Shown here piece by piece: positions 3,897 to 55,883 of a DNA stretch of 64,000 nt. Every line of letters starts with the position of its first letter. Positions within the stretch are counted from its first letter, which is position 1. A program made the position numbers and the translations under genes. The notes beneath the pieces were generated by a model, which worked only from the letters and a program-made list of their open reading frames with translations, made no database searches and was not told the origin of the DNA. Origin of the DNA: Candidatus Methylacidiphilales bacterium. Lineage in GTDB: Bacteria > Verrucomicrobiota > Verrucomicrobiia > Methylacidiphilales > CAZTYG01. The stretch is taken from positions 64,467-128,466 of the forward strand of contig JANRJG010000041.1 in assembly GCA_033875315.1 (NCBI GenBank), read 5' to 3'.

Positions 3897-4631
3897 TTAA
3901 GGCGATTCGCGTGGCAGAAGAAAGGAGGGAGCAATTTCCGACGTAAACGATTTCAACATGTCCAGAGTCTGGGCTTCATCTTTACCGTTGAGGACATACC
4001 CTTGGGTGACCACGCTCATGACACTGACGTAAGCCCAACGGTGGTTGATTTGGCGGAACACCCGATCCCAACTGGTCAAAAAGAGTCGCTTCCAATGGTG
4101 CGGAGTTGTCGTGTCCTTGCCAATGAACCAATAAAGAAAGACCGCGCGCATCTGGTTCTTGCGACCGTTCCCAAAATCGACTTCACGCTGCAGGTCCAGC
4201 TTCATTGCTTCGAGATTGCCGCCATCCTTCATCGGGATGTTCACGGTCTGGCCCTTGCGCATGTACCAACCTTGGGCAGGCAGACAGACTTCTGGGCGGT
4301 GGATGCTGCGCTTCTCCCCACCCGCCAGCACGATGGAAACCGTGATGCGGTCACCTTTGGTCGAAAAGTAGGCCTTGCGGACAATCTCGGTGTCGCTTGG
4401 CAGGAGGAGTTTTTCGCCAGGGGACATTTCCTGGGGTTCCGAGAGCATGCCCAGAGGGAAATCAGGCAAAACCATCCGCACTCCGGGTTGGGAGGCCGTG
4501 TTTGGGTTGGGTGTGATCCAGCATATCCCCACCGCCAGAATCGAGAGCCCGAGCAGGACCAGTCCGCGCCCGAGAGCGATGCGGATCGGCCCGGTCTTTG
4601 TGCCCGTGATGTCCAGTGTCAGCTCAGTCAT
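3897..4631 (-). CDS. epsI: exosortase-associated EpsI-family protein
   Basis: N-terminal TM anchor, then the EpsI-type motif HRPEVCLPAQGW. Lies directly downstream of the exosortase with a 1-nt TGATG overlap. Confidence 0.8.
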   Translation of the reverse strand: MTELTLDITGTKTGPIRIALGRGLVLLGLSILAVGICWITPNPNTASQPGVRMVLPDFPLGMLSEPQEMSPGEKLLLPSDTEIVRKAYFSTKGDRITVSIVLAGGEKRSIHRPEVCLPAQGWYMRKGQTVNIPMKDGGNLEAMKLDLQREVDFGNGRKNQMRAVFLYWFIGKDTTTPHHWKRLFLTSWDRVFRQINHRWAYVSVMSVVTQGYVLNGKDEAQTLDMLKSFTSEIAPSFLLPRESP

Positions 4632-5773
4632 CAGAACTCCTTTCCGGGCTGGGGAGGACTCTTTACCGCGCCGATCACTGCGTACAATCCCTTGCTCCTC
4701 TCGATCAGTGTTTTGCAGCCTTCATTCAGGAACCAACCCCACGTGAACATTCCTCCCAACGCCACCCCGAATACCAGAAATCCGGAAGCCATGTGGTACG
4801 TGCTTGGATGCTCCAAATCCCCGATGGCCACCTTGCTGCCCAATAGAAGAGTGCCGAAGGTGAGCATGAGGATGCGACAAAAGTTGCCCAGCACGGCAAA
4901 CGGGGCCGCCGAAAGAAAAACCAGCCAACCCCGCCAATGGTCGGTGAAAAAGGCCAGGAATTCGACGCACCCCCTCTGCCAAAACGGCCCCCCAGCCACC
5001 TGCTTGCGCCATCCGGCCAGGGTGTCGTCTTTGGTGGTACCGAAATAGGCGAAAAGGGCGGAAACCATGGTCAGGGCAAAGAGCGACCGGATACCGCTGC
5101 ACGGATCGGCCACATCCAGGGCGAATCGGGCCCCCTGGGCCAGCCCGCGCACCGGATCAGGAGCCGAAACAATCGACGTCCCCACCCGCAGAACGTCGAG
5201 GCCGATGAGATTCAGAAACCCATGCGAAAAACGGGCCATGATGTCACGCAGGGGAAATGCGATCGTCGCTTCCAGAAATGGCATCGGCCAGGCAAAAAAC
5301 AGAAAAGCATAGGGAAAAAAAACCGCCCGCAACAGCGGCCAACCAAACAGCCACACTGCCGTGGCCCCAATCATGAGATGAAAAACCAAAAAGCTGAAAA
5401 CCACGATGTCGATGAGGTAACCAACCCAGAAGAGCCCCATGCCTAACAGGAAAAGATACAATCCGGAAATCTGCCCCTCCCAAGGAACATCTCGCAATTT
5501 CTCACGATCCAACCAAATGATGAAAAGGGAAATCAGCGGCACCAATTGGCAGTGCTCCCATTCTTTTGCGTGCTTCCACATCCAGAGGAGGTTGGAGACC
5601 ACCGAAGTCGGCTGGTCACCCCAACCCGCCCCATAGGGGAACAAGGCAAACATCAGGGCCAAGCCGGCACCGGCCGCTGCCACAGAAGCCGAAGGCATGA
5701 GCCATACCGGAAATCGCGAATGGCTTCCGTTCTGCATGGCCAACAAAGTAGACACATCGCCCGAAGGTTCCAA
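4631..5773 (-). CDS. exosortase (Xrt family; subtype not assignable)
   Basis: Polytopic membrane protein with the exosortase catalytic-type motifs DPCSGIRS (Cys), LGNFCR (Arg) and a later conserved His (YHMASG). Partnered with EpsI. Confidence 0.85.
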   Translation of the reverse strand: MEPSGDVSTLLAMQNGSHSRFPVWLMPSASVAAAGAGLALMFALFPYGAGWGDQPTSVVSNLLWMWKHAKEWEHCQLVPLISLFIIWLDREKLRDVPWEGQISGLYLFLLGMGLFWVGYLIDIVVFSFLVFHLMIGATAVWLFGWPLLRAVFFPYAFLFFAWPMPFLEATIAFPLRDIMARFSHGFLNLIGLDVLRVGTSIVSAPDPVRGLAQGARFALDVADPCSGIRSLFALTMVSALFAYFGTTKDDTLAGWRKQVAGGPFWQRGCVEFLAFFTDHWRGWLVFLSAAPFAVLGNFCRILMLTFGTLLLGSKVAIGDLEHPSTYHMASGFLVFGVALGGMFTWGWFLNEGCKTLIERSKGLYAVIGAVKSPPQPGKEF

Positions 5774-12648: not shown

Positions 12649-12841
12649 GATTCAAGAATGACCGGATTGCAAACCCTTGTCAGCGTCAATTTCCCCAATC
12701 CTCCCTGATCTTTTCCCCATGGGAGACACCGCTCATTTACGGGGAAAACGCCCCTCCGGGAACCTTCTCATCGAGACCACCCGGCGCTGGTCTTACAATT
12801 TAGAGCCATTCCGGTTTAACTAGATGCATTTCTTGTTCTGG

Positions 12842-12905
12842 GGTGGAGCGGGCTGCGTGAGGTCGCGTTCTGCTTCCAACGCGGTCACACGACTCTCCGA
12901 GCACG
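12842..12905. repeat. intergenic hairpin element, copy 1 (short-loop version)
   Basis: ggtggagcgggctgcgtgaggtcgcgtt-ctgcttcc-aacgcggtcacacga... The stem is gtga..cgcgtt / aacgcg..tcac with an 8-nt loop. Homologous to 47857-47960. Confidence 0.7.
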
Positions 12906-14945: not shown

Positions 14946-15985
14946 CTGCTCCCCTTCCAACGCCAGGAGACGTTTCGGCAGACGAAGGCACTCCGCTGGC
15001 CGGGTTTTAGCGGGGTGTAAAGCGCATAGTCGACATGGCGGCGCCGGTAGGCCCCGGCAAACCCCTTCTCCAGCCAGTGCGCGGCTTTGACGAAGGGACG
15101 CAGCAGCCCACCCCGCCAGCCCATTCCCGTCCGCCATTGGCGCGCCTCCGCCAGAGCTCCCGGAGTCTGGCCCAGGTTCCCTTCGCCCATGGCGAAAGTA
15201 GCCAATGGCTTGGGCAGGACGGCCACCCGGAAACCCGCATGCATTACCCCGTGGACAAAAACCGCATCCCCGATGGCCTTCCATTCCACGGGAAAGCGGT
15301 GACCGGCCTCGGCCACCTTCCTGCGGTAAAACATGGCGCAACTCCAAACCCCCAGATGGCACAGACGGATATGCAGTGCCCGCGGCGGCACCACGCGACG
15401 ATAAGACAAAAGGGACCCATCCTCCCGGGTCAGCAGGGCATCCCCGAAGAGGACATCCGTGGCGGCATCACCCGAAAAAAAGTCGGCCACAACAGCCAGC
15501 GTGTCCGGCAGATACTGTTCATCACAATTCAAGTAAGCCAGGATTGCCCCCTCCGCCCGGGAGATCCCCTTGTTGATCGCATCGTACATACCGGTATCCG
15601 GCTCTTTGAAAATACGAAGCGCGTAACCGCATCGGGTGCGAAAGTGTAAAAGTTCAAAAGGTTGAAGGCCGGTGATGGCCTCTCCTCCATATTGGGAACG
15701 CAGGGTTTCGCCAAGTTCTTGGGCAAATTCCTCAATTCCCGGCGTGCCCCCGTCCTGGATCAAATGCTCCACGGCAAAGCCGTGGGTAGGAAAGGGGGAA
15801 GGTAATAAAGTGGGAACGTCCCCCGGTCCAAACTTGTTTACATTCCCACCTTCGCACTTTTTTACCTGCGTACCTTTCGACTTTTCACCTGCGCACTCCC
15901 CCCCCCCCTGATCCGCCACACTGGCAATACAAAGCCTCAACTTGTCCAATTGACCGAACGAGGGCGTGATGATGGAAAAGGTCAT
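14942..15985 (-). CDS. GT2 glycosyltransferase (paralogue of 9624..10583) with low-complexity insert and G11 tract
   Basis: MTFSIITPSFGQ...VEHLIQDGGTPG...EPDTGMYDAINKG...NCDEQY. ATG 15985 is preferred over the track start 16021, which would run into the repeat arm. Confidence 0.8.
   Translation of the reverse strand: MTFSIITPSFGQLDKLRLCIASVADQGGGECAGEKSKGTQVKKCEGGNVNKFGPGDVPTLLPSPFPTHGFAVEHLIQDGGTPGIEEFAQELGETLRSQYGGEAITGLQPFELLHFRTRCGYALRIFKEPDTGMYDAINKGISRAEGAILAYLNCDEQYLPDTLAVVADFFSGDAATDVLFGDALLTREDGSLLSYRRVVPPRALHIRLCHLGVWSCAMFYRRKVAEAGHRFPVEWKAIGDAVFVHGVMHAGFRVAVLPKPLATFAMGEGNLGQTPGALAEARQWRTGMGWRGGLLRPFVKAAHWLEKGFAGAYRRRHVDYALYTPLKPGQRSAFVCRNVSWRWKGSR
15898..15908. repeat. C11 (coding-strand G11) homopolymer inside GT2 gene 14942..15985
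   Basis: 3 C at 15898-15900 plus 8 C at 15901-15908. The coding strand reads CAG GGG GGG GGG GAG (QGGGE). Confidence 0.9.
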
Positions 15986-16003
15986 GGGAATCAGGAAAGT
16001 GCT

Positions 16004-16022
16004 AAGGTGGAAAAGTAGCAAG
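16004..16022. repeat. inverted-repeat arm (stop-codon side) of four-helix-bundle cassette 1
   Basis: aaggtggaaaagtagcaag. The reverse complement of 16444-16463 is aaggtgtaaaagtaggaaag. About 16 of 19 positions match by hand alignment. Confidence 0.6.
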
Positions 16023-16032
16023 TCTTCTCGCT

Positions 16033-16389
16033 CTAATCACGCAAATGCTTGGTAAATGCGGCTATCCGCTTCGACAGTTTTTCAGAAAGCTCGCGCAATT
16101 CCACCGTTTTGCTTTCGGACAATACCCGTATGTCCTCTGCTGCGTAAGTCATGCTGCGCACCTCCCCACAGGACCCCTTGGCCATATCCAGAAAATGGGC
16201 AAAATCCCGAGAAGTGTGCCGCTCGAATCCTTCGGCGATGTTGTTCATGACGGAGAGGGCCGCCCTCCGCATCTGATCGCGAAAAGAAAAATCCCTGCAA
16301 GATTCCAATGCCACATACGCTTGGAAATGAAGTTGTCGCGCTTCCTGCCAAATTTCCAAGTCTTCAAAACGCTGGGCAAACCGCTTCAT
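16033..16389 (-). CDS. four-helix-bundle protein (23S rRNA intervening-sequence protein / Avd-like family)
   Basis: FEDLEIWQEARQL..., RRAALSVMNNIAEGFER, FLDMAKGSCGEVRS: the motifs of this family. Confidence 0.85.
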   Translation of the reverse strand: MKRFAQRFEDLEIWQEARQLHFQAYVALESCRDFSFRDQMRRAALSVMNNIAEGFERHTSRDFAHFLDMAKGSCGEVRSMTYAAEDIRVLSESKTVELRELSEKLSKRIAAFTKHLRD

Positions 16390-16443
16390 GCCTCGTAAAA
16401 ACTACCTAAACCCATTCAGCCTTCAACCTTTCCGATCTTTATT

Positions 16444-16463
16444 CTTTCCTACTTTTACACCTT
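16444..16463. repeat. inverted-repeat arm (start-codon side) of four-helix-bundle cassette 1
   Basis: ctttcctacttttacacctt, partner of 16004-16022. 16403-16429 (ctacctaaacccattcagccttcaacc) next to it resembles the 28-nt element family. Confidence 0.6.
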
Positions 16464-16478
16464 CTTACTTCGCTGCCT

Positions 16479-47856: not shown

Positions 47857-47960
47857 GGTGGAGCGGGCCGTGTGAGGTCGCGTTCTCCCGTGACCACGTC
47901 ACCGTGGAACGGGACACGTGGCGCTTCCAACGCGGTCACGCGAACCTCCGCGTGAGCGGC
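47857..47960. repeat. intergenic hairpin element, copy 2 (44-nt structured loop)
   Basis: Same flanks and stem (47872-47884 / 47929-47939). A 36-nt insertion is confined to the loop, and it is itself self-complementary (cccg..ccacg tcac cgtgg..cggg). Confidence 0.7.
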
Positions 47961-49777: not shown

Positions 49778-51775
49778 TCAACCGCTCACTTGTCGCTCTG
49801 TACCAACAAAACCCCTGATCACCCTCACCATGCGGTCGATCTGGGCCGGGGTCAGGCCGGGATAGACTCCGATGAAGATCGCCTCATTCATGATTCTATC
49901 CGCACCCGGGAGAAGGCTTGTTGCTCCTTGTTTGCCCCGGCTTCCCCCGACGACGCGGAACGCGTCCGGGTTGTCATGACGCAACTGGACGAATGCCGGC
50001 TGGCGGACGAGGTTGCCACCAAAGAGCATGCGGTTGCCGATCTTGTGTTCGTCCAAATGCCGGGCCAGATCTGTGCGGGAAAAAGGAGCCCCGGGCTTCA
50101 CCAGCATCATGAAGCCGAACCAGGACGGACTGCAGCGCAGCCCGTGTTCATGTGACATGTCTGAGTTTAAGGGAGAAAGACCGTCGGATTTCCATCCGAA
50201 TGAGGCCTCCTGCCATTCGTCTTTTCTTGAACTTAAACCTTCAACTTCAACTCCCAACCATGCGGATGCATGGGTGGGCAGGGCAAACTCCAGCACATCC
50301 TCCAGCCCGGCCAATCCCCGGCGCAACAATTCCCAGTTGCGTTTGCGGGCCTCGATGAAGGCGGGCATCTTCTTCAATTGGGCCCGGCCGATGGCCGCCT
50401 GCGGATCGAGCGGCTTCAGGTTGTAGCCGATGTGGCTGTAGATGTATTTGTGGTCGTAGCCCTCGGGCAGTTCACCCAGTTGCCAGCCGAACCGTTTCCG
50501 GCAGGTGTTATCGACCCCGCTGGCGCACCAGCAATCCCGGCCCCAGTCCCGGAAGCTCTCCACCAGCACCTTGAGCTTCATGTCCTTGACGATGTTGATG
50601 GCCCCACCCTCGCCCATGGTCAGGTGGTGCGGCGGGTAGAAGGACTGTGTGCTGAGGTCACCGAAAGTGCCGGTGTAGGCGGTCAAAATCCCGTCCACGA
50701 TACGGGGGATTTTGAGTGCCTGGTTCTGTGTGTTTGATTCTGGGTTGGCTCTCGCGCGCTGGAGAAGATGCTGCAATCCCAAGGATTCGGCCAACGCGAC
50801 GGGAAGCGAATATGTGCAACCCAGGGCATCACAATTGTCCTCGATCAGCCAGAGGTCGTGTTTTTTGCAGAAGGCCAGCACGGTGGCCAGATCGAAGGGG
50901 TTGCCCAGGGCGTGGGCCATCATGACGGCCTTGGTTTTCCCGGGGACAAAGGCTTCCTCCAAGCGGGAGAGATCGGCGTTGCCGGTCGTGGGGTCATTGT
51001 CGAGGAAAACGGGCACCGCGCCATTTTGCAGGATCGGGGCCACGGTGGTGGGGAATCCGGCCGCGCAGGTGATGATTTCGTCGCTGGGACGGATGCGTTT
51101 CTCCGGTGGCAGTTTGTGGCTGGTCAGGGCGGTGAAGGCCAGCAGGTTGGCCGAAGAGCCGGAATTGGTCAGGATACAGCGGCGCACCCCGAGGAATTCC
51201 GCCAGTTCGGATTCAAAAGCCTCACCCTCCTTGCCCAGGGTGAGCCAAAAATCGAGGGTGGCGGAAACCGCCGCCGTCACTTCGTCTTCATCAAAGACAC
51301 GACCGGCGTAGGGAATGGCTTCCGGCTTCAAGTTTCCGGCTTCAAGTTTCCGGTGGGTTTCAGCCTCCGTTTCCAAGCGGACCTCATCATCCCCGGGCCT
51401 TTGCGCCAAGTGGGTCAGGCGGGAGAAGGAACGGGAATTGGACAAGGCCAAGGCTTTGTGACAATCCTTCAAACGAGAGGGCTTCAGTGACGCGCCCCAA
51501 TCCCGAAGCTCGGATTCATGAACGGTCAGAAAGCGGTCTGTGCGGATATAACTCGTCTTCAGCAAACGACCGCTGGCCAGATCTTCCTGGGTAAAGGCGA
51601 TCGCATGAGGATAGTGCGGCGCACCGGTGACTTTGAGAAGAGTGACGTCACCCTGTTTATCAGCGCCCGTGATCGCCAATGCAGGCCTGCTTTTCGAAGA
51701 AAAGGATGCCGACCCCTTGCGGTCGGAATCCGTATGTGGCCAGTCAAGGTAGTAAAAGCGGCCGGGTTGGATCAT
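49778..51775 (-). CDS. rfbH: RfbH/DdhC-type CDP-6-deoxy-4-hexulose 3-dehydrase with an N-terminal PemK/MazF-like domain fused in frame
   Basis: Residues ~150-665 match RfbH-family motifs from memory: YAGRVFDEDEV, NSGSSANLLA, AAGFPTTVAP, SFYPPHHLTMGEGG (His replaces the PLP Lys), DWGRDCWCASGVDNTCRKRFG (Cys cluster), GYDHKYIYSHIGYNLKP, SWFGF, RMLFGGNL. Residues 1-~110 look like a PemK/MazF toxin: GRFYYLDW, SKSRPALAIT, LLKTSYIRTDRFLTV. Confidence 0.8.
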   Translation of the reverse strand: MIQPGRFYYLDWPHTDSDRKGSASFSSKSRPALAITGADKQGDVTLLKVTGAPHYPHAIAFTQEDLASGRLLKTSYIRTDRFLTVHESELRDWGASLKPSRLKDCHKALALSNSRSFSRLTHLAQRPGDDEVRLETEAETHRKLEAGNLKPEAIPYAGRVFDEDEVTAAVSATLDFWLTLGKEGEAFESELAEFLGVRRCILTNSGSSANLLAFTALTSHKLPPEKRIRPSDEIITCAAGFPTTVAPILQNGAVPVFLDNDPTTGNADLSRLEEAFVPGKTKAVMMAHALGNPFDLATVLAFCKKHDLWLIEDNCDALGCTYSLPVALAESLGLQHLLQRARANPESNTQNQALKIPRIVDGILTAYTGTFGDLSTQSFYPPHHLTMGEGGAINIVKDMKLKVLVESFRDWGRDCWCASGVDNTCRKRFGWQLGELPEGYDHKYIYSHIGYNLKPLDPQAAIGRAQLKKMPAFIEARKRNWELLRRGLAGLEDVLEFALPTHASAWLGVEVEGLSSRKDEWQEASFGWKSDGLSPLNSDMSHEHGLRCSPSWFGFMMLVKPGAPFSRTDLARHLDEHKIGNRMLFGGNLVRQPAFVQLRHDNPDAFRVVGGSRGKQGATSLLPGADRIMNEAIFIGVYPGLTPAQIDRMVRVIRGFVGTERQVSG
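50226..50253. repeat. solo copy of the ~28-nt cassette-arm element, in frame inside rfbH
   Basis: cttgaacttaaaccttcaacttcaactc. Its reverse complement shares the first 12 nt (gagttgaagttg) and an 8-nt block (tttaagtt) with 53187-53216. About 20 of 26 positions match 53594-53619 in the same orientation. Confidence 0.65.
51322..51349. repeat. perfect 14-nt tandem duplication (ccggcttcaagttt x2) inside the PemK-RfbH linker
   Basis: Read directly from the sequence. Encodes ...KLEAGNLKPEA... Confidence 0.8.
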
Positions 51776-51987
51776 TTGCCGGGGATTTCAAAGAGTTCTT
51801 CCGCAGATTCATCTTCATCCCCTCGGATGAAGGAAGGCATTTGCAGGTCCAGCATCGCTTTTCGTTCGAGCGAGATACTCAGAAGCTCATTTTCGGTATA
51901 AAGTTCTAAGTGTGCCCCCTCGGGAATGGGTTCGCTCGAGTCTATGACCCGCAACACGCCACCCTCCTTGACGACAGTGATACTCAT
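51772..51987 (-). CDS. small antitoxin-like protein (DUF104/AF2212-like N-terminus)
   Basis: 71 aa MSITVVKEGGVLRVIDSSEPIPEGAHLEL... with an acidic tail. ATGA overlaps at both ends: with the rfbG stop (51984-51987) and the toxin-domain start (51772-51775). The track's longer 145-aa version overlaps rfbG. Confidence 0.5.
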   Translation of the reverse strand: MSITVVKEGGVLRVIDSSEPIPEGAHLELYTENELLSISLERKAMLDLQMPSFIRGDEDESAEELFEIPGK

Positions 51988-53225
51988 AATGGTGCATGAT
52001 ACTCCCTGATCTGTCTCCGGGTCAATTCTCCCGGATTGCCCCCCTCGTGAACTCCACGATACCACGCCACGGTTTGTGACAACGTGGTGGCAAAATCCCA
52101 TCGCGGTGACCAGCCCAACAGATGATGGGCCTTGTCCCAGACGAGATTGAGCTTCCCGGCCTCGTGGGGGGCGTTCGGGTCGGAGCGGTCCTCCCAGGTG
52201 CCTGGCCAATGTTTGAGTATTTCCTCGACCAGCTCTTCGACCGTCTTGTTGGATTCCAGATGGGGACCGAAGTTGAAGGCGGCGCAGAGCTCTGCCGTTG
52301 AAGGGTTGAAGGGTTGAGAGGTCGAGGGGATTCCACCTTTAAATCCTTCAACGCCGCCTGCGGCGGCATTCACCCCATCAACACTTGCGGCGAGACGAGC
52401 CGCAAGGAGGAGATAACCGGACAGAGGCTCCAACACGTGCTGCCAGGGACGGGTGGAGATTTTGTTGCGCACGGGCACCGGATGTCCGGAAGCAAGGGCG
52501 CGGATGGCGTCGGGCACAATACGGTCCATAGCCCAATCCCCGCCCCCGATGACATTGCCCGCCCGGGCCGAGGCAACGAAGCACGATGCACGAAGCCCTT
52601 CATCTTCGAAAAACGAATTCCGCCAGGAAGCAATGGCGATCTCCGCCGCGCCTTTGCTCGAACTGTAGGGATCGTGGCCGCCGAGCGGATCCACTTCCCG
52701 GTAGCCGTGCAACCACTCACGGTTTTCGTACACTTTGTCGGTGGTGATGAGGACCGCGACGGTCGTCACCTTGCTCAAGTTTGAGTCGGAAGTTGAAACT
52801 CCCCTTAAACTTGCGGCTTTGGCTTCTTGAAGTGCCCTCAGCGCTTCAAGAACATGGATGGTGCCCATGACGTTGGTTTCCCAGGTCTCCACCGGGGTGC
52901 TGTAGGACAAGCGGACCAAGGGTTGGGCGGCCAGGTGGAAGACGAAGTCGGGCGAAATTTCCAATACGGTCTTTTTCACCGAAGCCCCGTCGCGGATGTC
53001 ACCTCGGCGGTCATTCATTCGGGAGGCGAGTCCCAGTTGATCGAAGAGACAGGGCGAGGACACGGGCTCCGGCAGGCTGAAGCCATGGACCTTGGCCCCG
53101 AGGGAGAGGAGCCACTCACAGAGCCAGGCCCCTTTGAATCCGGTGTGGCCGGTCACGAAAACGTTCTTTCCAAGGAACGTTTTCGTGAGTTGAAGTTGTG
53201 AATTTAAGTTTAAGAGGGAACTCAT
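51984..53225 (-). CDS. rfbG: CDP-glucose 4,6-dehydratase
   Basis: VFVTGHTGFKGAWL, FHLAAQPLVRLSY, DKVYENREW, DPYSSSKGAAE, RAGNVIGGGDW, RPWQHVLEPLSGY. Carries in-frame inserts (see findings). Confidence 0.9.
   Translation of the reverse strand: MSSLLNLNSQLQLTKTFLGKNVFVTGHTGFKGAWLCEWLLSLGAKVHGFSLPEPVSSPCLFDQLGLASRMNDRRGDIRDGASVKKTVLEISPDFVFHLAAQPLVRLSYSTPVETWETNVMGTIHVLEALRALQEAKAASLRGVSTSDSNLSKVTTVAVLITTDKVYENREWLHGYREVDPLGGHDPYSSSKGAAEIAIASWRNSFFEDEGLRASCFVASARAGNVIGGGDWAMDRIVPDAIRALASGHPVPVRNKISTRPWQHVLEPLSGYLLLAARLAASVDGVNAAAGGVEGFKGGIPSTSQPFNPSTAELCAAFNFGPHLESNKTVEELVEEILKHWPGTWEDRSDPNAPHEAGKLNLVWDKAHHLLGWSPRWDFATTLSQTVAWYRGVHEGGNPGELTRRQIREYHAPL
52297..52328. repeat. tandem octamer array (gttgaagg x2, gttgagag, gtcgaggg) inside rfbG
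   Basis: Four consecutive 8-nt units. A further gttgaagg lies at 52272-52279 and an inverted copy ccttcaac at 52345-52352. Confidence 0.75.
52824..52852. other. perfect 9-bp hairpin (ttcttgaag / cttcaagaa, 11-nt loop) inside rfbG; neighbouring 9/10 hairpin 52776-52785 / 52804-52813
   Basis: Read directly. Both lie in the segment encoding the rfbG insert ...QEAKAASLRGVSTSDSNLSKVTT... Confidence 0.75.
53187..53216. repeat. inverted-repeat arm (stop-codon side) of four-helix-bundle cassette 2; also encodes the rfbG N-terminal extension
   Basis: gagttgaagttgtgaatttaagtttaagag. The reverse complement of 53594-53619 is cttgaagttgtaattttaagttagag. Matched blocks of 10+5+5+4 nt separated by small bulges. 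Confidence 0.7.
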
Positions 53226-53584
53226 TTTAAGACATCCGGGGTTTTCAGGCTTCTGGTAAACGCATAAAGTATGTGCGAAAAATCCGCACGTTCACGCAGA
53301 TAAGTTTCCAACTCGGCACCGGTTGCGACCGCCAACTCCCAGGCAATCATCAACTGCGATCTAAGTTCACCAAGTGGGCCCCGGGCGATGCCCACAAAAC
53401 GGGCAAATTCCGCAGGAAAGTTTCGTTCCGCCCGTTCTGCGATTTTGGAGGGCACACTGATGGCGGTTCGTAAAATCCGGCCTCGTAGTGCAAAGAAACG
53501 GCAATCAATGAACACACGACAAACGTAGACGGTCGGTTTGTGGGCTCTTTCCCAAATTTCCAGATCCTCAAAGCCTCTGCTCAT
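53222..53584 (-). CDS. four-helix-bundle protein (23S rRNA IVS protein / Avd-like family), divergent copy
   Basis: FEDLEIWERAHK..., RTAISVPSKIAERAER, IARGPLGELRSQL. ATGA overlap with the rfbG start. Confidence 0.75.
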   Translation of the reverse strand: MSRGFEDLEIWERAHKPTVYVCRVFIDCRFFALRGRILRTAISVPSKIAERAERNFPAEFARFVGIARGPLGELRSQLMIAWELAVATGAELETYLRERADFSHILYAFTRSLKTPDVLK

Positions 53585-53593
53585 GACAATCCG

Positions 53594-53619
53594 CTCTAAC
53601 TTAAAATTACAACTTCAAG
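53594..53619. repeat. inverted-repeat arm (start-codon side) of four-helix-bundle cassette 2
   Basis: ctctaacttaaaattacaacttcaag, 9 nt upstream of the ATG at 53584. Confidence 0.7.
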
Positions 53620-53635
53620 ACGCGACAGAGCCGCG

Positions 53636-54403
53636 TCACCAAACCTTCCAAGGCGCTTTCCCGCTGTTCCAAAGTTCTTCAAGGTGATTCTTATCCCGGA
53701 GGGTATCCATCGGCTGCCAGAATCCTTCGTGCTTGAAGGCCCTCATCTGGCCTTCGGCGGCCAATCGCTCCATGGGCTCCTTTTCCCAAAGCGTTCCATC
53801 ACCCTCCACATGCCCGAGAACCGAGGGATCGAGGACAAAAAAACCACCGTTGATCCAGGAGCCGTCTCCCTTGGGTTTCTCTTGGAAGGCAACCATTTCG
53901 TCCCCGTCTAGTTGCAGCGCACCGAATCTCCCGCTGGGCTGCACGGCGGTCAAAGTGGCCTTTTTCCCATGGGCCTTGTGGAAGGCGATAAGCGCCTTGA
54001 TGTCAACATCCCCCACACCATCTCCATAGGTCATACAGAAGGCACCGTCCTGCACATAAGGAGCGATCCGCTTCAGCCGCCCACCGGTCATCGTGTCTTC
54101 ACCCGTGTCGACGATGGTGACCCGCCAAGGCTCGGTGCGTTTTTCATGTACTTCCATTTTATTGTCCCGCATGTCAAAGGTTACATCGGATTGGTGGAGA
54201 AAATAATTGGCGAAATATTCTTTGATCAGGTATCCCCGGTAACCCGCGCAAATGACAAAGTCATGGATGCCGTGGGCCGAGTAAATCTTCATGATGTGCC
54301 AAAGGATGGGATAATTCCCGATCTGGACCATGGGCTTGGGCTTGAGGGAGGTTTCTTCGCTGAGTCGGGTGCCCAAACCTCCGGCCAAAAGAACTGCTTT
54401 CAT
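53636..54403 (-). CDS. rfbF: glucose-1-phosphate cytidylyltransferase
   Basis: MKAVLLAGGLGTRLSEETSLKPKPMVQIGNYPILWHIMKIYSAHGIHDFVICAGYRGYLIKEYFANY is nearly canonical RfbF. Confidence 0.92.
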   Translation of the reverse strand: MKAVLLAGGLGTRLSEETSLKPKPMVQIGNYPILWHIMKIYSAHGIHDFVICAGYRGYLIKEYFANYFLHQSDVTFDMRDNKMEVHEKRTEPWRVTIVDTGEDTMTGGRLKRIAPYVQDGAFCMTYGDGVGDVDIKALIAFHKAHGKKATLTAVQPSGRFGALQLDGDEMVAFQEKPKGDGSWINGGFFVLDPSVLGHVEGDGTLWEKEPMERLAAEGQMRAFKHEGFWQPMDTLRDKNHLEELWNSGKAPWKVW

Positions 54404-55526: not shown

Positions 55527-55883
55527 CCAGCGCCACGTCCCTGCCCTTATGCCACCGGGCACGGAACGAGAACCGACAGACACGACAAAACAAAGGCTAC
55601 ACCCTGACGGGTCTTGTTCGGTATCCAAATCTTCCCCGAAGCCCCTCTCCAACCCATACAAGGAATTGCATCCAGTTAAACCGGAATGGCTCCAAGCAAG
55701 GAGACCCGGTGAAGACGATGGTTGATGGCCATTGCGGTTCAGCGCCCGAAGGTTCGGTCGCATACGCTCAACATCCAAGTGGATTGATTTTCTGAACCCG
55801 CGTGAATCCGGGCTCAAGACGCCCGCACCTTGATTGATGGCCACACCAGCATTCAAGGTGCGTCCTGCATGTCCACCCGCCTG

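Follow-up and report, generated by a model that had tools for sequence, protein, structure and literature searches.

The subject of this analysis is a short repeated sequence located inside the coding region of an rfbH gene, in a 64-kb stretch of DNA (hereafter 'the window': 64,000 nucleotides, corresponding to positions 64,467 to 128,466 of contig JANRJG010000041.1) from a Candidatus Methylacidiphilales bacterium of the phylum Verrucomicrobiota. The host gene, at positions 49778-51775 of the window on the minus strand, is an intact open reading frame (ORF) of 665 codons for CDP-6-deoxy-L-threo-D-glycero-4-hexulose-3-dehydrase (RfbH). Its product displays the DegT/RfbH aminotransferase fold (Pfam PF01041), carries an N-terminal PemK-like domain, and scores 615 bits against the NCBIfam RfbH equivalog model, for which the cut-off is 423. 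Within that gene, at 50226-50253, is found the sequence CTTGAACTTAAACCTTCAACTTCAACTC, which reads GAGTTGAAGTTGAAGGTTTAAGTTCAAG on the coding (minus) strand and corresponds to the residues (G)VEVEGLSSR within the longer product segment ...LGVEVEGLSSRKDEWQEASFGWKSDGLSPLNSDMSHEHG.... A preliminary description of this DNA, made from its letters alone, had singled out the same 28 nucleotides as a dispersed element residing in frame inside rfbH, and the sequence, position and translation that it gave were all borne out.

That element is related to the two arms of a nearby cassette. Its reverse complement and the arm at 53187-53216 have in common a block of 12 nucleotides (GAGTTGAAGTTG) and a further block of eight (TTTAAGTT), and repeat finding recovered the two as a pair of 29 nucleotides that are 83% complementary; a hand count against the second arm, at 53594-53619, found 20 of 26 positions to be the same in the same orientation, and both of these previously claimed relationships were thereby reproduced. 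A search of the window for the exact 28-mer, with up to three mismatches allowed, returned only the element itself, and a gapped core, TTGAAGTTG-N4-TTTAAGTT, was used in place of that unproductive search. The core occurs exactly three times in the 64 kb (in rfbH and in both cassette arms) and approximately zero times in shuffled windows, while sites matching at least 17 of the 23 fixed bases of the consensus number three in the window, versus a total of one over 20 shuffles. Five weaker relatives that had been proposed (at 16403, 57878, 52333, 52799 and 54438) did not survive this comparison: none reaches 17 of 23, and two of them (16403-16429 and 52333-52352) represent a different arm variant, GGTTGAAGG. 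Compared with the arm consensus described below (AGTTGAAGTTGRRAGTTTAAGTTKAAG), the copy in rfbH is well preserved, with a match at 25 of 27 positions.

The cassette itself (cassette 2, positions 53187-53619, approximately 430 nucleotides) lies 3 kb from the rfbH arm, between rfbF and rfbG, and is bounded by terminal inverted repeats of approximately 27-35 nucleotides, which are predicted to pair with each other on folding (z = -3.0). Enclosed between them is a gene of 120 codons (53222-53584, minus strand) that encodes a four-helix-bundle protein of the type found in 23S rRNA intervening sequences (IVSs), as identified by PF05635 and TIGR02436. The arm downstream of that gene (53187-53216, plus strand) matches the consensus at 25 of 27 positions and encodes the N-terminus of RfbG (MSSLLNLNSQLQL), whereas the upstream arm (53594-53619, minus strand) matches at 21 of 27 and is followed by a short outer hairpin at 53619-53637. 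Translation of the downstream arm as the RfbG N-terminus recurs at two comparison loci (designated, as are the others below, by L numbers), L051 and L052. The stop codon of the IVS-protein gene and the start codon of rfbG overlap as ATGA in the window and in L052; there is no such overlap in L051, where decay has left 54 codons of the IVS-protein gene, and the corresponding site in L057 is empty.

Several lines of comparison indicate that the rfbH segment that contains the arm is an insertion. The preliminary description had proposed an insertion of about 40 residues ahead of the conserved SWFGF motif; alignment to the solved structure of Yersinia E1/RfbH (3bcx) leaves 48 residues (500-547, encoded by 50135-50278 on the minus strand) without a counterpart, between chain residues 335 and 340 and immediately before SWFGF. 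In a close relative (P0005/L057, 74% identical) the insert is absent and the empty site reads GWNPDGSFTWDGSGNQTDCSWFGF; the same genome also lacks the cassette between rfbF and rfbG, and its RfbG is 373 residues in length. Relative to that empty site, the window gene contains two inserts of approximately 40 nucleotides each, one (50201-50257) holding the well-preserved arm and the other (50135-50182) holding a decayed partner arm, with a host-like F-G-W-K-S-D segment (50183-50200, minus strand) located between them; an F-x-W motif is also found at this point in arm-free RfbH proteins, and is predicted to form a beta-strand (residues 526-528). The partner arm (50145-50179, minus strand, with the translation LSPLNSDMSHE) is recognized by the core CTTAAACT at 50164-50171, approximately 50 nucleotides downstream of the first arm in the coding direction, and eight nucleotides of this partner survive (p approximately 0.025); in L052 and L054 the same site, in the same frame, clearly reads CAACCATTAAACCCATCAAC and CAACTCGAACTCAAAACTCGAAC, respectively. 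The earlier designation of the rfbH copy as 'solo' therefore holds only roughly.

Each of the two rfbH arms is flanked on its outer side by a hairpin. On the side of the partner arm (50125-50145, minus strand), ACGGGCTGC/GCT/GCAGTCCGT is predicted to form a 9-bp stem that consists of the host codons for C-S-P-S and an inverted copy of them (read as H-G-L-R), and that is missing from the empty site of L057. On the side of the preserved arm (50258-50273, minus strand), CCATGC/ATCC/GCATGG forms a stem in the predicted fold, within the host codons for T-H-A-S-A-W.

An alignment of 29 verrucomicrobial RfbH proteins (495-767 residues) further revealed four hypervariable insertion hot spots, one of which contains the window segment; the segment is absent from solved E1 and is not conserved protein sequence. 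Inserts within a single RfbH protein have motifs in common, as in P0018, where SSSSSGEK...SNSKLEL appears four times. In the AlphaFold2 model the predicted local distance difference test (pLDDT) falls below 50 at residues 510-521 and 532-543, on either side of the strand predicted at 526-528, and the model superposes on 3bcx with a TM value of 0.87 per target. As modelled, the residues encoded by the arms are predicted to be disordered loops that bracket a beta-strand of the C-terminal domain, with the fold of the enzyme retained.

Two additional stretches of the window RfbH are likewise absent from solved E1, namely residues 324-367 (50675-50806, minus strand), which are partly conserved in the phylum and have a variable centre, and the stretch GGSRGKQGATS at approximately 610-621 (49913-49948, minus strand). 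No arm is recognizable in either of them in the window; relatives have arm-derived inserts at both of these hot spots.

A comparison of rfbH inserts and cassette arms across genomes revealed that the link between the two recurs. The arms of the window follow an AAGTTK pattern, while those of L052 carry GTTGAAGGG, those of L054 GTTCGAG, and those of L056 TCAAGTCTCAGG. In L052, where the cassette arms read GTTGAAGGGTTGAGGGG and CCAACCATTCAACC, the rfbH insert reads GAGTTGAAGGGTTGAAGGG ... CAACCATTAAACCC; in L054, with the cassette arms AGTTCGAGTTTAGAGTTCGAG and ACTCGAACTCGAAC, all four rfbH inserts read AGTTCGAGTTCGAGTGG ... CTCGAACTC; and in L056, where the cassette is 9 kb away and ends in ...GGCCTCAAGTCTCAGGTC, the insert reads GGTCTCAAGTCTCAGGATCTC. 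The cassette occupies the same position, between rfbF and rfbG, in L052 and L054 as it does in the window. In four genomes (those three and the window), then, the insert exhibits the variant of its own cassette arms, and because the two match genome by genome, the copies follow the arm variant of the genome in which they reside. Judged from these sequences, simple vertical decay of one old insertion would not predict such matching.

The window contains a second example of the same correspondence, involving the variant GGTTGAAGG. A second IVS-protein gene (16036-16401, assigned by TIGR02436, with a product similar to that of cassette 2 at a phmmer E value of 8.5e-17) is enclosed by inverted arms at 15640-15672 and 16419-16464, together forming cassette 1 (15640-16464, minus strand), and a second in-frame palindrome (GGVEGFKGGIPSTSQPFNPS) lies in rfbG at 52300-52358 on the minus strand and is not present in the rfbG genes of L051 and L057. 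Within the window, GGTTGAAGG is found only in both arms of cassette 1 and in that rfbG palindrome. The product of the window rfbG is 413 residues long, versus 371-373 in L051 and L057, and besides the palindrome the gene contains additional variable inserts and the N-terminus encoded by the cassette-2 arm, the further stretches concerned being those around 52770-52815 and 53187-53225.

The distribution of the arm beyond this window was established by a scan with the 19-base pattern AGTTGAAGTTG-N4-TTTAAGTT of 185,579 species, each represented by one genome. The scan yielded 50 loci, 38 of which derive from 31 assemblies of Verrucomicrobiota (assemblies being counted by accession prefix), with a GC content of 45-68% and belonging to the Opitutaceae, Akkermansiaceae, Verrucomicrobiaceae and Chthoniobacterales. 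The remaining 12 consist of 11 loci of low GC content (28-40%), which, because of that composition, are expected by chance, and one tandem repeat in a genome of the Pirellulaceae (GC 55%); none of these 12 contains any arm besides the match that seeded it. In contrast, the 38 verrucomicrobial loci contain, in 249 kb, 83 arms that agree with the consensus at 21 or more of 27 positions, 45 of them beyond the seeds, versus zero in ten shuffles, and positions left free by the pattern are nonetheless conserved among them (A at 86%, G at 94%, and AAG at 91-94%). The element thus occurs elsewhere far beyond chance, and its earlier characterization as 'dispersed' is correct for other genomes and incorrect for the window, where the three copies fall within 3.4 kb.

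The resulting consensus, AGTTGAAGTTG-RRAG-TTTAAGTT-KAAG, spans approximately 27 nucleotides, or about 4.5 AAGTTK hexamers, and is common to Opitutales, Verrucomicrobiales and Chthoniobacterales. Its arms occur as inverted pairs in two arrangements. In the short form they are 40-61 nucleotides apart (start to start) and enclose a short variable spacer, for a total length of approximately 75-90 nucleotides; in the long form they are approximately 400 nucleotides apart and enclose an IVS-protein ORF, for a total of approximately 430. The arms pair in predicted folds, with z values from -3 to -7.6. The G/T positions of paired arms are more often opposite than equal (of 21 pairs, 7, 8 and 4 agree at the three positions), so that the arm stem contains a single mismatch about every six nucleotides. 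Hairpins are concentrated on the outer side of the arms: the outer 32 nucleotides of 80 arms fold at -12.3 kcal/mol, versus -6.3 kcal/mol for random 32-mers (p = 5e-18), while the inner flank is not better than random, and the sequence of these flank hairpins differs from copy to copy. Wherever a gene is found between a pair of arms it encodes an IVS protein (in five of five scan loci, and in the window, L052, L054 and L056), and, reciprocally, each of the five IVS-protein ORFs in the scan loci lies next to an arm. The element is better described as an IVS-type palindrome that exists in short and long forms.

Further observations concern individual members of the family. Approximately 12 arms are found within 8 kb in L001, about eight of them within 1.1 kb (4600-5700) with GC hairpins between them, in a mosaic-like array. 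L001, L003 and L019 contain a subfamily in which the spacer, ACGGATGCAGACGGAACCG-GAT-TGCTGA, is conserved. At 10 or more loci (among them L016, L030, L040, L041, L042, L045 and L049) a plausible start codon follows 2-16 nucleotides after the end of an arm's G-free strand, and no Shine-Dalgarno sequence intervenes.

Copies of the same element are also found in an unrelated enzyme. Full canonical elements are located in purL at three places (L025, L026 and L044) in two Opitutaceae genomes, between Pfam domains, and correspond in translation to (P/S/A)VEVE(S/G)LSL(R/S)(K/E)...(S/T)xNLN, with RK in L026 and L044 and SE in L025. Their frame is that of the window rfbH (GVEVEGLSSRKD...SPLNS), and L026 and the window rfbH have the same three codons after the arm (AGA AAA GAC, for RKD). 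The arm possesses only one open frame (GTT GAA GTT ..., read as VEVEGLSS), and the rfbH copy carries a C in place of the consensus G that would generate TGA; at that last K position, where 59% of all arms have G, each of the four canonical in-frame arms carries T or C. Avoidance of the TGA-forming G in the in-frame arms speaks for the passage of ribosomes through the inserts, and the rfbH insert would accordingly be transcribed and translated together with its gene.

The PurL proteins of L026 and L044 are 73% identical, and their genes are identical at 76% of nucleotides and 63.5% of third codon positions, while their arms are identical at 27 of 27 positions, which indicates that something besides the host protein constrains the arms. 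The hairpins that flank the purL arms (CCAGCAGGAGCAGGAC/ACC/GTCCTGCTCCTGCTGG in L025 and GATCAGGAGCAGGAC/ACC/GTCTTGCTCCTGATC in L060) have outer pairs that change along with the host codons. Comparison of filled and empty purL sites demonstrates that each hairpin is composed of host codons and of an inverted copy of those codons that lies within the insert; in purL as in rfbH, filled and empty sites differ by such inverted copies of host sequence in place of a target duplication.

The purL gene is also encountered in split form: in L058 (1846-5746), from one verrucomicrobial genome, a large PurL is divided into two ORFs that overlap by eight nucleotides, and in L059 (4001-5659), from another, the C-terminal half of PurL stands alone, in neither case with an element nearby. 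Since split or half PurL genes also exist in element-free genomes, they were rejected as a sign of gene breakage by the element.

Taken together, these observations make it probable that 50226-50253 represents the better preserved of the two arms of a small palindromic repeat, and that this element has been inserted in frame into a surface loop of RfbH, much as the preliminary description had suggested by analogy to the in-frame palindromes of Rickettsia; the insertions in both rfbH and purL, and the abundance of arms far beyond chance, favour that analogy. The element consists of two inverted arms enclosing either a short spacer (the short form) or an IVS-protein gene (the long form, with the architecture of an IVS). 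It would be mobile now, or have been so recently, or else be kept uniform by gene conversion, and in genes it would be translated and not removed. In all likelihood the insert serves no purpose in RfbH; it would be neutral for the enzyme and would represent tolerated selfish DNA.

Several observations weigh against this interpretation. First, no direct target duplication is visible in the flanks of 21 short forms or on comparing filled with empty sites of purL and rfbH, and between the arm pairs covered no transposase was seen, the IVS-protein gene being the only cargo. A helical IVS protein of 120 residues is not known to move DNA, and the identity of these proteins (32-54% among those with AAGTTK arms) does not follow the arm variant, which neither supports nor excludes a role for the IVS protein as an arm-specific factor. 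Second, the canonical copies in the 64-kb window are all confined to 3.4 kb. Third, the rfbH copy is imperfect as an example of the element, in that its partner arm is barely detectable in the window, and in that a host-like F-x-W strand separates the arms in three genomes, an arrangement that looks like two inserts of about 40 nucleotides and not like one insertion event. Finally, translation of the insert is deduced from nucleotide sequence. Sequencing runs compared with the window contained at most 7% of its words, and the metatranscriptome contigs that aligned to PurL derived from other organisms and left the element uncovered, so that they bear on removal from RNA in neither direction.

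The principal rival explanation, which we consider rather unlikely, is that the arms constitute a cis-acting signal of the host, such as a module for RNA processing or stability (an RNase III or RNase E site, or operon punctuation), an unstructured leader for translation that lacks a Shine-Dalgarno sequence, or a protein-binding site, and that the coding copies are by-products. A signal of this kind would fit the retention of a 27-nucleotide consensus across three orders, the stronger conservation of arms than of the host gene, and the position of arms next to GC hairpins that vary in sequence through base changes by which pairing is preserved. It would also fit the occurrence of at least 10 likely gene starts 2-16 nucleotides past an arm with no Shine-Dalgarno sequence, the provision of the 5' end of rfbG by an arm in three genomes, and the cleavage of 23S IVS stems by RNase III (PMC4990558). 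On the other hand, purL contains full elements of very high predicted stability (-73.6 kcal/mol), and termination or processing within that gene would be expected to do harm; moreover, sites are present or absent among close relatives. No Rfam family matched the window between 49000 and 55000 or six canonical-element loci, and no rRNA was found in them. The specific reading of the arm as a translation leader was rejected, since gene starts within 25 nucleotides of an arm are not enriched (16.7% versus 15.2% in the control, in what was a crude test).

A second rival, which we regard as improbable, holds that the arms are scars of break repair or of templated addition, in which each end of a break acquired hexamers before the two were rejoined, perhaps through the action of an IVS protein resembling Avd (an accessory protein of diversity-generating retroelements) together with a polymerase or reverse transcriptase. 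Tandem hexamers that are inverted around a spacer of variable length and sequence, and that are unaccompanied by any visible target duplication, fit such a process; hairpins built of host sequence and its inverted copy fit fold-back at broken ends, and the IVS protein is a member of the Avd family. However, the arms exhibit a fixed layout of 27 nucleotides with a non-repeat TTGG/TGAA centre, in place of open-ended repeats, some subfamilies have a conserved spacer (as noted for L001, L003 and L019), and no reverse transcriptase was seen near any copy.

Still less probable is the proposal that the insert is cut from the rfbH transcript in the manner of a 23S IVS, with the two halves rejoined or working separately, and is never translated. 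The architecture of the element is that of an IVS, IVSs are cut by RNase III (PMC4990558), and the arms can pair. Nevertheless, none of the copies seen inside genes disrupts the reading frame or introduces a stop codon (in a sample of ORFs called as intact, from which frame-breaking copies would be missed), and the arm invariably lies in the single frame that is open, with another base in place of the G that would create TGA. Furthermore, rRNA IVSs are excised without ligation (PMC4990558), and in the window rfbH the partner arm is too decayed to form a stem.

The last alternative, that the segment is an ordinary lineage-specific loop of RfbH whose likeness to an arm is a coincidence or a product of low-complexity bias, draws some encouragement from the presence in the window of another pair of 29 nucleotides at 83% complementarity and from the variability of this loop in all relatives, and is refuted by the genome scan, by a match at 25 of 27 positions to a consensus derived from other genomes, by the same DNA in the same frame in the unrelated enzyme PurL, by the pairing of insert and cassette-arm variants in four genomes, and by the count of 83 arms versus zero.

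The interpretation of the rfbH arm as part of a small inserted palindrome places it alongside several known classes of bacterial repeats, among them the Rickettsia palindromic elements (RPEs), which are short multi-copy palindromes inserted in frame into unrelated metabolic genes, translated, and located at sites compatible with the fold (Ogata et al. 2000, summarised in PMC10969869). Like them, the verrucomicrobial palindromes are multi-copy, dispersed in genomes, and found in frame in unrelated metabolic genes, and the RfbH prediction places the insert at a loop position compatible with the fold; the resemblance is one of kind, and a relation in sequence to RPE-1 to RPE-10 is not expected, given the hexamer-repeat arms. 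Whereas RPEs are approximately 150 bp in length, the elements described here have arms of 27 nucleotides made of hexamer repeats and a total length of approximately 80 nucleotides, their hosts are free-living and GC-rich Verrucomicrobiota, they possess a long form with an IVS-protein gene, and their flank hairpins are partly host sequence. Literature searches for Verrucomicrobia together with 'miniature inverted-repeat', or for such in-frame elements in this phylum, found no description of them, and the 12-mers TTTAAGTTGAAG and CTTCAACTTAAA were not found printed in the literature searched; a 61-residue synthetic query built from the translated element returned no protein candidates. [quoted passage not shown]

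The long form closely resembles the IVSs of 23S rRNA genes. The IVS of Coxiella is 428-444 nucleotides in length, with a terminal stem of 28 bp, an ORF for S23p, and a GC content below that of the genome (PMC4990558), and cassette 2, in comparison with that IVS and with those of Leptospira, is similarly about 430 nucleotides long, bounded by pairing terminal repeats of about 27-35 nucleotides, richer in A+T than the genome, and provided with a single PF05635/TIGR02436 ORF; short forms that lack an ORF have their parallel in the IVSs of Salmonella and Yersinia. The stems of 23S IVSs are substrates of RNase III, and no ligation follows their excision; where IVSs come from and what their ORFs do are considered unresolved, with hypotheses of transposon remnants and of mobile elements having been advanced (PMC4990558). 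In contrast to those sequences, cassette 2 is located between rfbF and rfbG and not in helix 9, 25 or 45, variants of its arms reside in protein genes, copies are numerous within a genome, and those in genes appear, from their frames, to be retained and read through.

Comparison with MITEs and with repetitive extragenic palindromic (REP) sequences yields both likenesses and differences. As with MITEs, the elements are small (75-90 nucleotides), have terminal inverted repeats (the 27-nucleotide arms), are mostly intergenic and sometimes in frame, and are present or absent between relatives; unlike MITEs, they display no visible target-site duplication and no parent insertion sequence or transposase was found, their arm consensus is kept across a phylum versus one genus, and the stem formed by their arms has a mismatch every six nucleotides or so. 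They resemble REP sequences, the REPINs built of them with their associated transposase (RAYT), and bacterial interspersed mosaic elements (BIMEs) in having paired inverted repeats around a spacer, a genome-specific population and one flanked small gene, and BIMEs in particular in the arrangement of GC hairpins beside a conserved AT-rich linker (PMC3733652). They differ from REP and REPIN-RAYT systems in that the arms are not palindromic (they contain no C, and therefore cannot fold on themselves), carry no GTAG or CGTC tag, and are not accompanied by any visible RAYT (a Y1 transposase), and in that the hairpins are variable and partly host DNA and the flanked gene encodes a four-helix-bundle protein. 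The reading of the arms as REP sequences was accordingly rejected on anatomy, since they are neither self-palindromic nor tagged, as was their reading as terminators. A relationship to the attC sites of integrons was rejected on the same ground: CTTCAAC and GTTGAAG are each one position off RYYYAAC ... GTTRRRY, the arms lie outside the variable hairpins and not at their base, and the cassette is situated inside a conserved rfb operon.

Some further features of the window deserve mention. The N-terminal region of RfbH (51416-51775, minus strand) carries a PemK/MazF-like domain, which Pfam matches at E = 6e-4 with a score short of the gathering cut-off and which AlphaFold2 models with a pLDDT of approximately 90, and an ORF of 71 codons ahead of rfbH (51772-51987, minus strand) overlaps both the stop codon of rfbG and the start codon of rfbH and occupies the position of an antitoxin; the combination of a PF02452 and PF01041 fusion with a small ORF is repeated in many verrucomicrobial loci. 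The window also contains an unrelated repeat family at 12800-12899, 47857-47950 and 55643-55695, with the sequences GAGCCATTCCGGTTTAACTNGATGCA... and GGTGGAGCGGGC...GCTTCCAACGCGGTCAC, which form pairs of 53 nucleotides at 83% identity and of 30 nucleotides at 93% identity.

A broader proposal, which is advanced only tentatively and which we hold to be possible rather than probable, is that 23S IVSs represent one face of a larger and previously undescribed class of palindromes, which in Verrucomicrobiota would be found between genes, in operons and within the coding frames of housekeeping enzymes. In this class the arms would be more constant than the host genes, entry would leave no direct target duplication and, on each side, a hairpin of host sequence paired with its inverted copy, and the Avd-like four-helix-bundle protein would serve as the factor of the element.

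At a practical level, arms and hairpins within genes can mislead start-codon calls, the use of 'conserved indels' as markers, and homology models, and the element explains the large variation in length of the proteins that harbor it, such as the range of 495-767 residues in RfbH. The reading of repeat DNA as protein has been studied mostly in Rickettsia and in a few pathogens, and is encountered here in free-living, GC-rich bacteria, in the core enzymes RfbH, RfbG and PurL. The origin of IVSs and the role of their S23p, or four-helix-bundle, protein have been open questions for approximately 30 years, and the existence in Verrucomicrobiota of copies numbering in the hundreds, in short and long forms, at filled and empty sites and with genome-specific arm variants, opens comparative genomics, and genetics in culturable Opitutaceae, as means of testing those questions.

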